Shown here one piece after another: positions 1,622 through 35,306 of a stretch of DNA of 35,306 nucleotides (its first letter is position 1; every line of letters starts with the position of its first letter). The translations under genes were made by a program, and so were the position numbers. Origin of the DNA: Sphingomonadaceae bacterium (GTDB lineage: Bacteria > Chloroflexota > UBA6077); NCBI GenBank assembly GCA_050261575.1, contig JBLNDL010000026.1, forward strand, positions 1-35,306. The letters run 5' to 3'. Under the pieces are notes generated by a model, which saw nothing but the letters and a program-made list of their open reading frames with translations, was not told the origin of the DNA and did not search any database.

Positions 1622-2892
1622 TGATGCTGCACGTCGCTATGATCAGCGTTCACACCTGCCCGTTGGCCCGGCTGGGGAGTCGGGAAACCGGGGGCATGAA
1701 CGTCTACATCCGGGAGTTGAGCCGCCACCTGGGTCGCAGGGGCGTGAGGGTGGACGTGTTCACCCGGAGGCAGGACCACGAGGTCCCAAAGGTGGTGGAG
1801 TTCGGCGAGAACGCCCGGGTTATCCACCTGGACGCGGGGCCGGCCCGCCCCATGGACAAGTACCACGTCCTGCAGCACCTCGGCCAGTTCACCCAGGGCG
1901 TGGAAGCCTTCCGGAAGGAAACCAGCAGCGATTACGCGTTAATCCACAGCCACTACTGGCTCTCCAGCCCGGTCGCCACCTCGCTCGCGGTCCAGTGGCG
2001 AGTTCCTCTGGTGACTATGTTCCACACCTTGGGACGGCTGAAGAACCGTGTCTCTCGGGATGACAGCGAGAGGGAGAACTCGGAGCGGATCGAGATCGAG
2101 CGCCTGGCGATGATGGCTGCAGACCGGATCGTGGCCGTGAGCCCCGCCGACTTGCACCAGATGGTCGGCTACTACAGTGCGGTGCAGGACCGGATTCAGG
2201 TCGTGCATGGCGGCGTGGACACCGGGCAGTTCCGACCATTCCCTGCGGACGTTGCGAGGACTATCCTGGGGCTGGGGCGCGAGAGACTGGTGCTCTTCGT
2301 GGGAAGGATTCAGCGGCTGAAGGGCATCGACCTCCTGCTGCGCGCCTTCGCTAGAGTGGTGAAGGAGTGGCCTGAGGACCCCAAGCCGAGACTCGTCGTG
2401 GTGGGCGGACGCAACCCTGCGGATCCGAACGACCCGGAGGCCCTGGAGATGGGCAGGCTGAGGGCCCTCTCCCAGCGGCTAGGGGTGCTGGATAGGGTGA
2501 TCTTCCAGGGGGCGGTGCCCCACTCCGATCTGCCGCTCTACTACTCGGCCGTCGACCTGGTCGTCGTGCCGTCGTTGTACGAGTCCTTTGGGTTGGTGGC
2601 GTTGGAGGCGATGGCCTGTGGAGCGCCGGTGGTGGCTTCGCGGGTCGGTGGCCTCCAGTCGACGATCAAGGATGGGCGGACCGGTCTCCTGGTGGGTCGC
2701 CGGACCCCGGACGCCTTCGCCGAGGCCATGAGCGCCGTTCTCCGCGACGACGCGCTGCGCACCTCCCTCTCGGAAGCCGCCGTTGGGGTGGCCCAAGGCT
2801 TCTCCTGGAGTGTGGCCGCGGAGCGGACGTTGCGGCTGTATCGGGAGTTGGTGCCCGAGTCTGGAAGGCACATGGCACTGGCATGCAACTAG
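1621..2892 (+). CDS. GT4 glycosyltransferase, MshA (D-inositol-3-phosphate GlcNAc transferase)-like
   Basis: 'SVHTCPLARLG..ETGGMNVYI', 'IHSHYWLS', 'FHTLG..K', 'VGRIQRLKG' and 'PSLYESFGLVALEAMACG'. Start is GTG 1621 or ATG 1624, overlapping the upstream stop. Confidence 0.85.
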   Translation: MMLHVAMISVHTCPLARLGSRETGGMNVYIRELSRHLGRRGVRVDVFTRRQDHEVPKVVEFGENARVIHLDAGPARPMDKYHVLQHLGQFTQGVEAFRKETSSDYALIHSHYWLSSPVATSLAVQWRVPLVTMFHTLGRLKNRVSRDDSERENSERIEIERLAMMAADRIVAVSPADLHQMVGYYSAVQDRIQVVHGGVDTGQFRPFPADVARTILGLGRERLVLFVGRIQRLKGIDLLLRAFARVVKEWPEDPKPRLVVVGGRNPADPNDPEALEMGRLRALSQRLGVLDRVIFQGAVPHSDLPLYYSAVDLVVVPSLYESFGLVALEAMACGAPVVASRVGGLQSTIKDGRTGLLVGRRTPDAFAEAMSAVLRDDALRTSLSEAAVGVAQGFSWSVAAERTLRLYRELVPESGRHMALACN

Positions 2893-2899
2893 TGATGAC

Positions 2900-2977
2900 T
2901 GTAGGTCGGGGGGCTTATACCCCGCCGCCCGCAGACCGAGAGGTACCCGGCGGCAGGGGTCAAGCCCCTGCCCTACA
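2900..2977. repeat. REP doublet (REPIN-like): two GTAG-led GC-rich hairpins in inverted orientation
   Basis: Left arm GTAG-GTCGGGGGG-CTTATA-CCCCGCC. Right arm, as reverse complement, GTAG-GGCAGGGG-CTTGA-CCCCTGCC. Confidence 0.7.
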
Positions 2978-3007
2978 TTAGTCTGTTCTGGTTCTATCGA
3001 GGTCGAA

Positions 3008-3706
3008 GTGGAGATAGGAAAGGTCGAGACACCGAAGGTAATACTGGTGGTGGGGGCCCACCCGGACGATACGGAGTTCTCCTCGGGGGGAAGCCTGCTC
3101 CGATGGACCCAACAGGGGTGCACGGTTCACTACCTGGTCTGCACCAACGGAGATAAGGGCACCAAGGATCTGGACATGACCGCGGAGCAGCTAGTGCCGA
3201 TCCGCCAGGAGGAGCAGCGGGAAGCGGCGCGGCGCCTAGGGGTGGCGAGCGTCACCTTCCTGGGCGGGCCGGACGGCGAGTTCCTGGCCGATCTGTCCAA
3301 CCGGGAAAAGATCACTCGTATAATACGGAAGGTGCGCCCCGACGTCCTGATGGTTCACGATCCATGGCGCCGGTATCAGTTGCATCCGGATCACCGAGCG
3401 GTGGGGATCTGCACACTGGATGCGATGGTGGCTGCTCGAGACCACCTCTACTTCCCCCACCTGTTCCACGAGGGGCTGATGCCCCACACTGTGCCCGAGA
3501 TCCTGCTGTTCGGGACCGACGAGGCCAACGTGTGGGTGGACACGTCGAGCACCATCGAGGGAAAGCTGTACGCACTCAAAGCCCACGAGAGCCAGGTATC
3601 TCGGATCCCGGACCTGAAGGAGCGGATCTACGATTGGGCGCGCCGCGTCGGGCGGGCGCACGGTCTAGAGCTGGCCGAGGAGTTTCACCGTATCGAACAG
3701 AGGTGA
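3008..3706 (+). CDS. PIG-L/LmbE family deacetylase (MshB/BshB-like)
   Basis: Metal-binding motifs 'GAHPDD' and 'HPDH', plus 'TNGDKG' and 'H.SQ'. The probable start is GTG 3008 behind GAGG; the ORF-track start at 2783 overlaps the GT4 gene and the REP. Confidence 0.88.
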   Translation: MEIGKVETPKVILVVGAHPDDTEFSSGGSLLRWTQQGCTVHYLVCTNGDKGTKDLDMTAEQLVPIRQEEQREAARRLGVASVTFLGGPDGEFLADLSNREKITRIIRKVRPDVLMVHDPWRRYQLHPDHRAVGICTLDAMVAARDHLYFPHLFHEGLMPHTVPEILLFGTDEANVWVDTSSTIEGKLYALKAHESQVSRIPDLKERIYDWARRVGRAHGLELAEEFHRIEQR

Positions 3707-33291: not shown

Positions 33292-34452
33292 CTACAGTAC
33301 GGAAACCTCGTTCTGGACCGCCGCCTGCTCTACCCTGTCGTCGATCGGCACGTAGGCCACGTTGTGGAGCCCCACGTACTCGGCGCGAGGGCGTATCAGC
33401 CGGTTGTTGGAGTACTGCTCCAGGATGTGAGCGGTCCAGCCTGCCATGCGGCTGATGGCGAACACCGGCGTGAACAGGTCGATAGGGATGCCGAGTCCGT
33501 AGTAGACCGAGGCGGAGTAGAAGTCGACGTTGGCGTTGATCCCCTTCTGCCGGATCATGTACTCCTCGATCTTGCGTGACATCTCGTACCAGCGGCTCTC
33601 CCCGGTCTCCCTGGCCATCTCCTCGGACATCCTTCGCAGATGGAAGGCCCGTGGGTCCTGCGTGCGGTACACCCGGTGGCCGAAACCCGGGACCTTCTTG
33701 CCCTGCTCCAGCAGCCCGGCGACGTAGTCCTCGGCCCTGCTGGGATCACCGATCCTGCGGAGCATCTGCATCACCTGCTCGTTGGCGCCGCCATGGAGCG
33801 GGCCCGCCAGGGTGCCGATGGCGGCGGTCACGGAGGAGTAGAGATCCGAGAGGGTGGCCGCCGCGACCCTGCCCGCGAAGGTGGAGGCGTTCAACTCGTG
33901 ATCCGCGTGCAGGATCAAGCAAGTATCCAGGATCTTGGCGGCCCTCTCGCTGGGGAGTTCCCCGGTCAGCATGTACAGGAAGTTGGCCGCCAAGCCGAGG
34001 TCCCGGCGCGGGGGGATCGGGTCCAGCTTCTGGCGGGACCTGTGGTGGGCGGCGACGATCACCGGCACCCGAGAGGTGAGCAAGATGGCGCGGCTGAGAT
34101 CCACGTCGTGGTGGTGTTCCGTTCCTCCGGGATCGTACATCGACATGGCTGAGACGGCGGTGCGCAGCACCATCATCGGCTCCGCCGTCTCTGGGAAGTC
34201 GACGATCATGCGCACGATCCCGTGTGGGAGATCCCTGCAGCAGGACAGCTTGTCATCCAGTTCGCGGCGTTGGTTGCGCGTGGGGAGGTGGCCGTACCAC
34301 AGCAGGTAGGACGTCTCCTCGAAGCTGGATTGGGCCACCAGATCGTTGATGTCGATGCCTCGGTAGCTGAGTTTCCCCGCGATGCCGTCCACCTCACAGA
34401 TGGCGGAGGTGCCGGCGATGACGCCTTCAAGACCGCCTTTGCTCGTTGACAT
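33292..34452 (-). CDS. Citrate synthase / 2-methylcitrate synthase (CitZ/PrpC type)
   Basis: 'GLEGV', 'L.YRG', 'LHADHELNASTF', 'GPLHGGANE', 'GFGHRVY..DPR', 'NVDFYS' and 'LIRP'. ATG 34452. Confidence 0.95.
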   Translation of the reverse strand: MSTSKGGLEGVIAGTSAICEVDGIAGKLSYRGIDINDLVAQSSFEETSYLLWYGHLPTRNQRRELDDKLSCCRDLPHGIVRMIVDFPETAEPMMVLRTAVSAMSMYDPGGTEHHHDVDLSRAILLTSRVPVIVAAHHRSRQKLDPIPPRRDLGLAANFLYMLTGELPSERAAKILDTCLILHADHELNASTFAGRVAAATLSDLYSSVTAAIGTLAGPLHGGANEQVMQMLRRIGDPSRAEDYVAGLLEQGKKVPGFGHRVYRTQDPRAFHLRRMSEEMARETGESRWYEMSRKIEEYMIRQKGINANVDFYSASVYYGLGIPIDLFTPVFAISRMAGWTAHILEQYSNNRLIRPRAEYVGLHNVAYVPIDDRVEQAAVQNEVSVL

Positions 34453-34702
34453 TCCTTCACCCCTTGCACGTACTACAAGCAGCGCGAGTGCAGCGGCGCA
34501 CGTCTTTCGGCATCGTCGCAGGAGCCGACTGTGGCCACACAATTCTATAATAAGTTGGTTCCAAATGTTAAGAAAGAGAACCGGTAACCCTTCTTCTGCA
34601 ATATGCGCACCACGAACGCCCTCCCGGCCGGCTTCGTGCGGCTGGCATGGAACTGGCTTCTGTGCTCACGTGTGATTCCACGGGTCGACCAGGGAGGATG
34701 GC

Positions 34703-34894
34703 ATGGACGTCGACTCCGCGGCCTTCGTGCTCGATCGGGTGGATGTGGCCCGAGAGGCCATCATGGAGGCTCAACAGATCGTCGCGAAGTTCTCTCAGCA
34801 GGAGGACGTCGAGGTGGCGCAACTGCTCCAGGAGCTGCTCGATCGCGCCGAGCATCTGGACGCGATGATCCGCAGCGGCAGCTATCCATCGTAG
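34703..34894 (+). CDS. Small acidic helical hypothetical protein (63 aa)
   Basis: Strong RBS (GGGAGG) before the ATG, GC3-rich codons, and a hairpin after the stop. Confidence 0.65.
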   Translation: MDVDSAAFVLDRVDVAREAIMEAQQIVAKFSQQEDVEVAQLLQELLDRAEHLDAMIRSGSYPS

Positions 34895-34902
34895 TGACGA
34901 AC

Positions 34903-34944
34903 AAGGTGGAGGCTCACGGTTCGGGAACCGCGAGCCTCCACCTT
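34903..34944. terminator. Long hairpin between convergent genes
   Basis: AAGGTGGAGGCTC-a-CGGTTC-gg-GAACCG-c-GAGCCTCCACCTT. Confidence 0.65.
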
Positions 34945-34987: not shown

Positions 34988-35306
34988 TTAGGCCGCCCGG
35001 GTTTCCCGGCCGCTCGCGGTGGGGTAGCCCGCCGCCTTCCAGGCGTTGAACCCACCACCGATGACGCTAATCCTGTCGTACCCCCCCTGGAACATCGTCA
35101 GCGCCGCACGGGCACTGGAGGCCTCGTGGGGTCAAGTTCAATACAGGATGATCTCCCTATCTCGAGGAAGGCGGAAGAAGCTCTTAGGCGGCTCCGATTT
35201 CGGGATGTTGATGGCCCCGGGGATGTGGGATGCCTCGTACTCCTGTGGGCTCCGGACGTCGACGAATAGGGCGGAGCCCTCGTCGTACTTCCTCTTTGCC
35301 TGATTC
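34988..35306 (-). CDS. Rhodanese-like domain selenoprotein with two in-frame UGA (UxU); 5' end lies outside the window
   Basis: Frame from 35305 reads NQAKRKYDEGSALFVDVRSPQEYEASHIPGAINIPKSEPPKSFFRLPRDREIILY-U-T-U-PHEASSARAALTMFQGGYDRISVIGGGFNAWKAAGYPTASGRETRAA*. TGA codons are at 35140-35138 and 35134-35132; the stop TAA is at 34990-34988. Confidence 0.88.
35099..35117 (-). promoter_or_regulatory. Candidate bacterial SECIS element
   Basis: mRNA CAGUGCC-CGUGC-GGCGCUG: 7-bp stem with one U-G pair and G at loop position 2. The stem starts 14 nt after the second UGA. Confidence 0.6.

Follow-up and report, generated by a model that had tools for sequence, protein, structure and literature searches.

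Several rhodanese-domain proteins that contain selenocysteine (Sec, U) have been described. A rhodanese-related sulfurtransferase with a U-x-U motif was noted in 2007 in deltaproteobacterial symbionts of Olavius algarvensis (Zhang and Gladyshev, Nucleic Acids Res, PMC1976440), and the available part of a 2026 review distinguishes five rhodanese selenoprotein forms, with the motifs UxxS, UxxG, CxU, UxxG again and, in TsoB, UxxxxU (PMC13188914). The third of these rhodanese-like forms corresponds to NF041203 and has a single Sec in its CxU motif (PMC13188914). The text and motif table of the same review, as far as available, do not contain 'UxU', and the motif listing of a 2022 review, again in its available part, gives CxU only, without UxU. 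The statement in a preliminary description of the present locus that single-Sec rhodaneses are known is thus correct, the C-x-U form being curated as NF041203. The novelty of the U-x-U form, which the same description had left to a later search, does not hold, since this form was already in print in 2007 (as read from the available part of PMC1976440) and its C-x-U parent form is the curated family NF041203.

The DNA analysed here (the window) comprises 35,306 nucleotides and is an entire contig (G000:C26), with a rhodanese gene on the minus strand that runs off the contig end. The 3′ 318 nt of this gene are located at 34988..35305 and consist of 105 codons and a TAA stop (34988..34990, minus strand). 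Read from 35305 on the minus strand, the frame is NQAKRKYDEGSALFVDVRSPQEYEASHIPGAINIPKSEPPKSFFRLPRDREIILY-TGA-ACT(Thr)-TGA-PHEASSARAALTMFQGGYDRISVIGGGFNAWKAAGYPTASGRETRAA-TAA. The first in-frame TGA (U1, 35138..35140, minus strand) is codon 56 of the window frame and approximately codon 71 of the full protein, and the second (U2, 35132..35134, minus strand) is codon 58 and approximately codon 73; 47 sense codons lie between the second TGA and the TAA. The motif region of the window protein reads EIILY-TGA-ACT-TGA-PHEASSARAA. Retranslation of 34988-35305 hence gives the same minus-strand rhodanese frame, with TGA-ACT-TGA and 47 codons to TAA, as had been reported in the preliminary description. 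In the open reading frame list under table 11 the gene is split into two fragments, one of 55 aa that is open at its 5′ side (35138-35305) and one of 35 aa (34988-35095), and was therefore missed by the ORF track, again as first described.

The 5′ end, whose recovery from adjacent sequence had been suggested, is probably located on contig C20. C20 begins with 104 bases that match window positions 35203-35306 without a difference, and it extends the frame by 15 codons as far as a TTG, with GGAGGTG 8 nt ahead of it. With the 15 added codons the protein has a length of ∼120 aa, and the TGAs are therefore at codons 71 and 73. Both the joining of C26 to C20 and the use of the TTG as start codon are inferred; in favour of the start, a database protein of 70 aa (P0005), which is 78% identical, has an equivalent start and ends at ...REIILY. 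On the other side of the gene, 44 nt past the stop codon, an inverted repeat is present (34903..34944, minus strand; 90% reverse-orientation self-match), which may form a transcript-end hairpin, though it is without a T-run; a terminator scan downstream of the rhodanese gene found none.

A Pfam profile search with the 105 window residues, with U written as C, yields a match to Rhodanese (PF00581) of 75.6 bits, against a cut-off of 22.2, which covers residues 2-92 and thus extends across both TGAs. Among curated NCBIfam families, NF041203 (rhodanese_LYCAU, 'rhodanese-related (seleno)protein') is the best match of the window protein and of all tested relatives. Every one of them stays below the 115-bit cut-off of this family: the window protein, of which the N-terminus is incomplete, scores 72.7 bits, four U-x-U relatives, translated from their predicted start or close to it, reach 70.3-89.8 bits, and domain-trimmed C-x-U relatives from the phylum score 58-109.5 bits. 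An AlphaFold2 model of the window protein, based on an alignment of 55 rows, has a pLDDT of 91.9 and contains a central strand at residues 51-55 (EIILY), followed by U56-T57-U58 and a helix at residues 59-73. A Foldseek search with this model retrieves single-domain rhodaneses, including 3nhv, 3gk5, 3ilm and 1gmx, at TM scores of 0.76-0.83. In the predicted model the two Sec residues are placed at the junction of the central strand and the helix, where rhodaneses have their catalytic Cys.

It is ambiguous from the sequence comparisons which of the two Sec residues is equivalent to the canonical catalytic residue. Alignment to domain 1 of the solved rhodanese 6mxv places the catalytic Cys on U2, whereas alignments to 3tp9 and to domain 2 of 6mxv, the latter with a two-residue gap, place it on U1. 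The earlier proposal that the catalytic Cys directly follows IILY agrees with the alignments to 3tp9 and 6mxv domain 2, and disagrees with that to 6mxv domain 1. Because the single-Sec relatives always have their Sec at the second position, U2 would be the primary nucleophile and U1 its partner. In sequence alignments to PDB chains, a C-x-C, C-x-U or U-x-U motif was absent from the solved structures. In the alignment of 55 sequences, with U written as C, positions 56 and 58 are at least 90% conserved as Cys, and so, at at least 90%, is the Glu three residues after the motif.

The same pair of TGAs is found in other genes. A paralog in the same genome (G000:C73:21935-22228, minus strand), which is 46% identical, reads ...RTIILY-TGA-GCT-TGA-PHEETSARAA. 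When the window protein was searched against 66 genomes of the class at E <= 1e-16, TGA-NNN-TGA was found at the motif site in 10 genes from nine genomes (G000, twice, and G001, G003, G039, G416, G202, G236, G313 and G344). Among 401 sampled genomes of the phylum, 13 matches were flagged as having two TGAs, nine of which are U-x-U on inspection; the remaining four (G185, G296, G372 and G080) are C-T-U, and their other TGA lies at a different place within the match. Y-C-[TAS]-U-P, with a single Sec, far outnumbers U-x-U in the phylum, and 26 of its genes were aligned. The second TGA is retained in all 36 aligned U-x-U and C-x-U genes, and the position of the first TGA is occupied by TGC or TGT in the C-x-U relatives and by Cys in C-x-C homologs. 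The Cys-only homologs in the database have C-[TS]-C-P at both TGA positions, as exemplified by P0003 with YCTCPHEASSARAA (45% identity). Both TGAs are therefore located on conserved Cys sites. TGA in place of a conserved Cys is the classical Sec/Cys signature. The comparison with homologs that the preliminary description had called for accordingly returns Cys in the C-[TS]-C-P proteins and TGA in the relatives, and the 'YCxCP.E..SAR.A' loop that it had ascribed to one subfamily is recognizable in the Cys-only homologs as YC[TS]CPxE..SA.

Loci L037, L093, L094, L098 and L099, which do not match the motif regular expression, lie outside the DNA and protein alignments; those of the unpublished genomes G037, G244 and G174 lie outside the alignments and counts, except for two control rows from L031. 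A protein tree of 55 sequences and 109 columns is poorly resolved; the origins of U-x-U on it need up to four changes, and the tree leaves room for a single origin of this form.

To describe the distribution of the form, the pattern TGA-NNN-TGA-N15-AGYGYCCGTGCGRCGY was scanned against one genome per species for 185,579 species, which gave 57 loci. Chance matches are expected at ∼0.5 by our own estimate for uniform base composition, and at a higher number in G+C-rich DNA. In-frame rhodaneses with Y-U-x-U account for 55 of the loci: 48 of the 57 fit a strict rhodanese pattern before and after the motif, and seven more are plainly rhodaneses as well, with altered GGxxxW or DxR motifs, truncation at a contig end, or divergence of the C-terminus past GG (L107). 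Two loci (L112 and L156) are spurious. The 55 loci belong, by their bin labels, to at least eight differently named groups, namely Chloroflexota (Anaerolineae, Chloroflexia and Dehalococcoidia), Planctomycetota (Pirellulales and Gemmatales), Nitrospirota, Deltaproteobacteria with Syntrophaceae, Armatimonadota, Methylomirabilota, Poribacteria and one cyanobacterium. Because the scan requires an exact match to the hairpin core, 55 is a lower bound; as the hairpin was itself a selection criterion, the scan informs on distribution and reading frame, and is not independent evidence of SECIS conservation. One locus from a bin labelled 'uncultured Enterobacteriaceae' (L121) has a U-x-U rhodanese nearly the same as that of a Methylomirabilota bin (L139), so that its label or binning is doubtful.

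P0005, from a Chloroflexota bin, is the closest database entry to the window protein; it is annotated as a 'rhodanese-like domain-containing protein' and stops exactly before the first TGA. Annotation truncates the gene to a 70-aa stub, and a widespread two-Sec protein is therefore largely invisible in protein databases. Rhodaneses with a single in-frame TGA at other sites were observed in two related genomes (L047, G017:C86, and L046, G014:C325), with the TGA contexts VVTY-TGA-NMRHRGSSRS, at the canonical Cys position, and YCHDSR-TGA-DLSPRAA. Judged from these sequences, several independent Sec forms of the rhodanese domain appear to coexist in the lineage.

A search for a SECIS element, proposed in the preliminary description, reveals a hairpin that fits the published bSECIS model and covaries among relatives. 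The hairpin is located at 35099..35117 (minus strand), over the codons for S-A-R-A-A-L, and consists of a 7-bp stem and the loop CGUGC (35106-35110). Folded in isolation it reaches -11.7 kcal/mol, with a z score of -3.54 relative to shuffled sequences, and its loop starts 21 nt past the second TGA and 27 nt past the first. The bSECIS model, as given in the available part of the 2026 review, comprises a loop of 3-9 nt with a G within its two leading positions, a stem of 4-16 bp, a UGA-loop spacing of 16-37 nt and an MFE <= -7.5 kcal/mol (PMC13188914). The window hairpin agrees with all four of these constraints for either UGA. The 49-nt stretch from the first UGA, which is G+C-rich, folds no better than its shuffles (z -1.03).

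No gaps are needed to align the 36 genes of the U-x-U and C-x-U forms from the motif onwards, and all 36 have the hairpin over the S-A-R-A-A codons. Pairing is retained in 86.9% of the cells of this alignment, and four of the seven base pairs have changed on both sides; none of 500 shuffles reached the observed values, and a control in which the pairing partner was slid by 1-3 columns gave a pairing of only 24-54%. Compensatory changes include GCGCC/GGCGC to GCGUC/GACGC, which replaces Ala by Val and Ala by Thr, and also GCACC/GGUGC. Part of the conservation of the hairpin is protein-driven, as the hairpin overlies a conserved peptide motif. The codons AGC GCC CGT GCG GCG are used in 23 of the 26 Sec-form genes that encode SARAA, A+T-richer genomes included, and by none of 14 SARAA pentapeptides elsewhere in the fetched loci (0 of 12 without the unpublished-genome locus L031); these 14 controls are mostly from non-coding frames, with three in Cys-rhodanese genes.

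The genome contains the complete machinery for Sec incorporation, with all four of the genes that had been named for inspection, selA, selB, selC and selD, scoring over the respective cut-offs. ARAGORN detects one tRNA-SeC(tca) on contig C12, where the Rfam tRNA-Sec model scores 73.5 bits, over its cut-off. The genes selA (595 bits, TIGR00474) and selB (331 bits, TIGR00475), both over the cut-offs, are adjacent on C14 and have no internal stops under table 11, and selD (353.7 bits, TIGR00476, over cut-off) is located at G000:C65:2949-3887 on the plus strand (L020), with one in-frame TGA inside. Since selD contains this TGA, the selenophosphate synthetase of the genome is probably a selenoprotein too. 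TGA is also the ordinary terminator of the paralog and of relatives, and the code is therefore not globally reassigned.

Soil-metagenome contigs from two studies (runs X1 and X5), which are 95-99% alike, contain both TGAs and the hairpin unchanged. Such contigs document presence alone, and X1 is possibly connected with the sample from which the window came. Seven of the ten differences in the coding region are synonymous; past the TGAs, six of seven are synonymous third-position changes and one is Ile to Leu. The pattern of these strain variants is that of a translated frame under purifying selection downstream of the TGAs. A loss of conservation past the TGAs, which would have marked the gene as a pseudogene, was not observed, since both the relatives and the strain variants remain conserved there.

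With the Sec machinery, the paralog, the relatives, the Cys homologs and the hairpin taken together, the proposal that both Cys positions are recoded as Sec is well supported, and the window gene very probably encodes a U-x-U rhodanese selenoprotein. A dead gene, in which two independent nonsense mutations have turned Cys codons into TGA, is hardly credible: a change of TGC or TGT to TGA takes one base only and the open reading frame is indeed broken under table 11, but both TGAs recur in many distant genomes and in the paralog of 46% identity, the downstream sequence is conserved, with six synonymous strain differences against one conservative, and the locus has a covarying hairpin in a genome with complete Sec machinery. 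This reading was rejected on the strength of the recurring TGAs, the downstream conservation, the hairpin and the machinery, and the recurrence of the TGA pair in the paralog and in distant genomes bears out the original argument that two random nonsense hits on exactly these codons are unlikely. The chance that TGA encodes one of the standard amino acids (codes 4 or 25 assign it to Trp or Gly), or that the TGAs result from a sequencing or assembly error, is likewise negligible. Nothing beyond the in-frame TGAs themselves speaks for it, whereas TGA terminates the paralog and relatives, selA and selB are free of internal stops under table 11, and the residue of homologs at both positions is Cys and neither Trp nor Gly; an error is further contradicted by the independent metagenome contigs of two studies, which show both TGAs. 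Altered code and sequencing error were rejected on the basis of the TGA terminators, the Cys homologs and these contigs.

A further alternative concerns only the first TGA. If U2 alone were efficiently decoded as Sec, with U1 mostly terminating translation or being read by a near-cognate tRNA, the first UGA would act as a selenium-dependent throttle and would not specify another catalytic Sec. The distance of the hairpin to U2, which is equal in all 26 aligned C-x-U genes, agrees with such a role, as does the position of the first UGA 6 nt further from the hairpin. However, the first UGA is kept as TGA in the 10 genes of the class and in 55 of the 57 loci of the pattern scan, the residue it stands in for is a Cys with at least 90% conservation across the family alignment, and its spacing of 27 nt is inside the 16-37 nt range given for bSECIS elements in the available part of PMC13188914. 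In addition, a leaky stop is not expected to fall solely on this Cys codon. We consider a throttle at U1 improbable, and decoding of both UGAs as Sec is the preferred reading.

Under double decoding, SelA, SelB, SelD and tRNA-Sec would together convert both TGAs into the active-site motif Y-Sec-Thr-Sec-Pro-x-Glu of a single-domain rhodanese of ∼120 aa. There is no space for a second hairpin between the UGAs, and one element therefore serves both, if both are decoded. The single hairpin would most likely recruit SelB-GTP-Sec-tRNA twice in succession: the complex bound to the hairpin loop would supply Sec at the first UGA and, two translocations later, the hairpin, now 6 nt closer, would recruit a second ternary complex for the second UGA. 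We infer both the use of a single SECIS for the two UGAs and the actual insertion of Sec at each of them.

The reaction chemistry and substrate are likewise a matter of proposal. The two selenols would flank one residue at the strand-helix junction, the site of the rhodanese persulfide, and form a vicinal pair, one member of which may accept sulfane sulfur or selenium as Se-S(H) or Se-Se(H). The second selenol could then resolve this intermediate by forming an intramolecular diselenide, or the pair might hold the chalcogen as a bridge. The U-x-U rhodanese would in that case be a low-potential chalcogen transferase or reductase and not a simple persulfide carrier. That a near-invariant SECIS at fixed register programs two SelB-dependent Sec insertions, and that the vicinal diselenol is a distinct catalytic device, is put forward tentatively, as a possibility with clearly less than an even chance of being right.

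The genomic context does not assist in narrowing these options: no conserved gene neighbourhood that points to a substrate was found among the window gene, its paralog and the relatives, and context therefore gives no functional lead. In the window, a 416-aa ORF that by eye resembles the citrate synthase family (33292-34542, minus strand) is near the rhodanese gene, and a 63-aa ORF is present on the opposite strand (34703-34894, plus strand). On C20 (L002), divergently upstream of the rhodanese gene, three plus-strand ORFs (563-1147, 1163-2218 and 2215-3564) are pyrR/pyrB/pyrC-like by eye, and a match to the PyrR site (RF00515), also divergent from the rhodanese gene, is located at 496-599 on the plus strand; its 48.9 bits fall short of the gathering score (54). 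The paralog adjoins a LacI-type regulator. In four loci (L103, L077, L082 and L106) the U-x-U rhodanese is flanked on one side by an FtsH-like gene (AAA + Peptidase_M41) and on the other by a gene for a Usp-domain protein of ∼385 aa. This FtsH - rhodanese - Usp order is confined to one family of relatives, represented by four genomes, and was not seen in the window's own family.

If the proposed chemistry is correct, the diselenol rhodanese could link its selenols in a strained diselenide within the molecule, or carry S or Se in an Se-X-Se bridge, and would function in the trafficking or reduction of selenium or sulfane, such as selenide supply or detoxification, and not in ordinary thiosulfate sulfurtransferase chemistry. 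It would also let processive double Sec insertion, and redox tuning from C-x-C to U-x-U, be studied in a natural model. With ∼120 aa and one hairpin, the gene is a compact test case for how a single bacterial SECIS could serve two adjacent UGAs, and for what is gained by a vicinal Sec pair relative to Cys-Sec or Cys-Cys. The U-x-U form has been a known kind since one sentence of 2007 and was little followed up; the present survey finds it to be common and strongly constrained.

Among the known systems, the sulfurtransferase of the Olavius symbionts shares with the window gene the domain and the two-Sec UxU motif, as described in the available part of PMC1976440. The symbiont form is from deltaproteobacteria, whereas the closest named protein to that of the window is from a Chloroflexota bin, and the two are likened by motif and domain only. 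Window-type U-x-U rhodaneses were also found by the pattern scan in bins labelled Deltaproteobacteria and Syntrophaceae (L119 and L146). NF041203 resembles the window protein in domain, length and the second-position Sec of x-Y-[C/U]-x-U, and differs at the first position, which is Cys in its single-Sec motif L-Y-C-A-U and TGA in the two-Sec motif L-Y-U-T-U of the window gene. The C-x-U relatives from the phylum have, in addition, the hairpin and its spacing in common with the window gene. The Cys-only C-[TS]-C-P rhodaneses (P0002-P0017), at 37-49% identity, share the fold and the YC[TS]CPxE..SA sequence; some of them have an N-terminal membrane segment, and as they are without TGA they have no need for a SECIS. 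TsoB (NF045694, UxxxxU) is, like the window protein, a rhodanese-domain selenoprotein with two closely spaced Sec residues, but is a rhodanese/DsbD fusion of 572 positions with another motif, whereas the window protein is single-domain and scores 35.5 bits against NF045694, far below the cut-off of 805. GlpE, PspE and other single-domain thiosulfate sulfurtransferases (1gmx, 3nhv, 3gk5 and 3ilm) have the same fold as the window protein. In GlpE/PspE-type sulfurtransferases the catalytic Cys is a single residue within a C-X4-R-[ST] loop. Unlike these enzymes, the window protein has a [C/U]-x-[C/U]-P-x-E motif that in the predicted model leads straight into the helix, with the Arg of the loop displaced from its canonical place.
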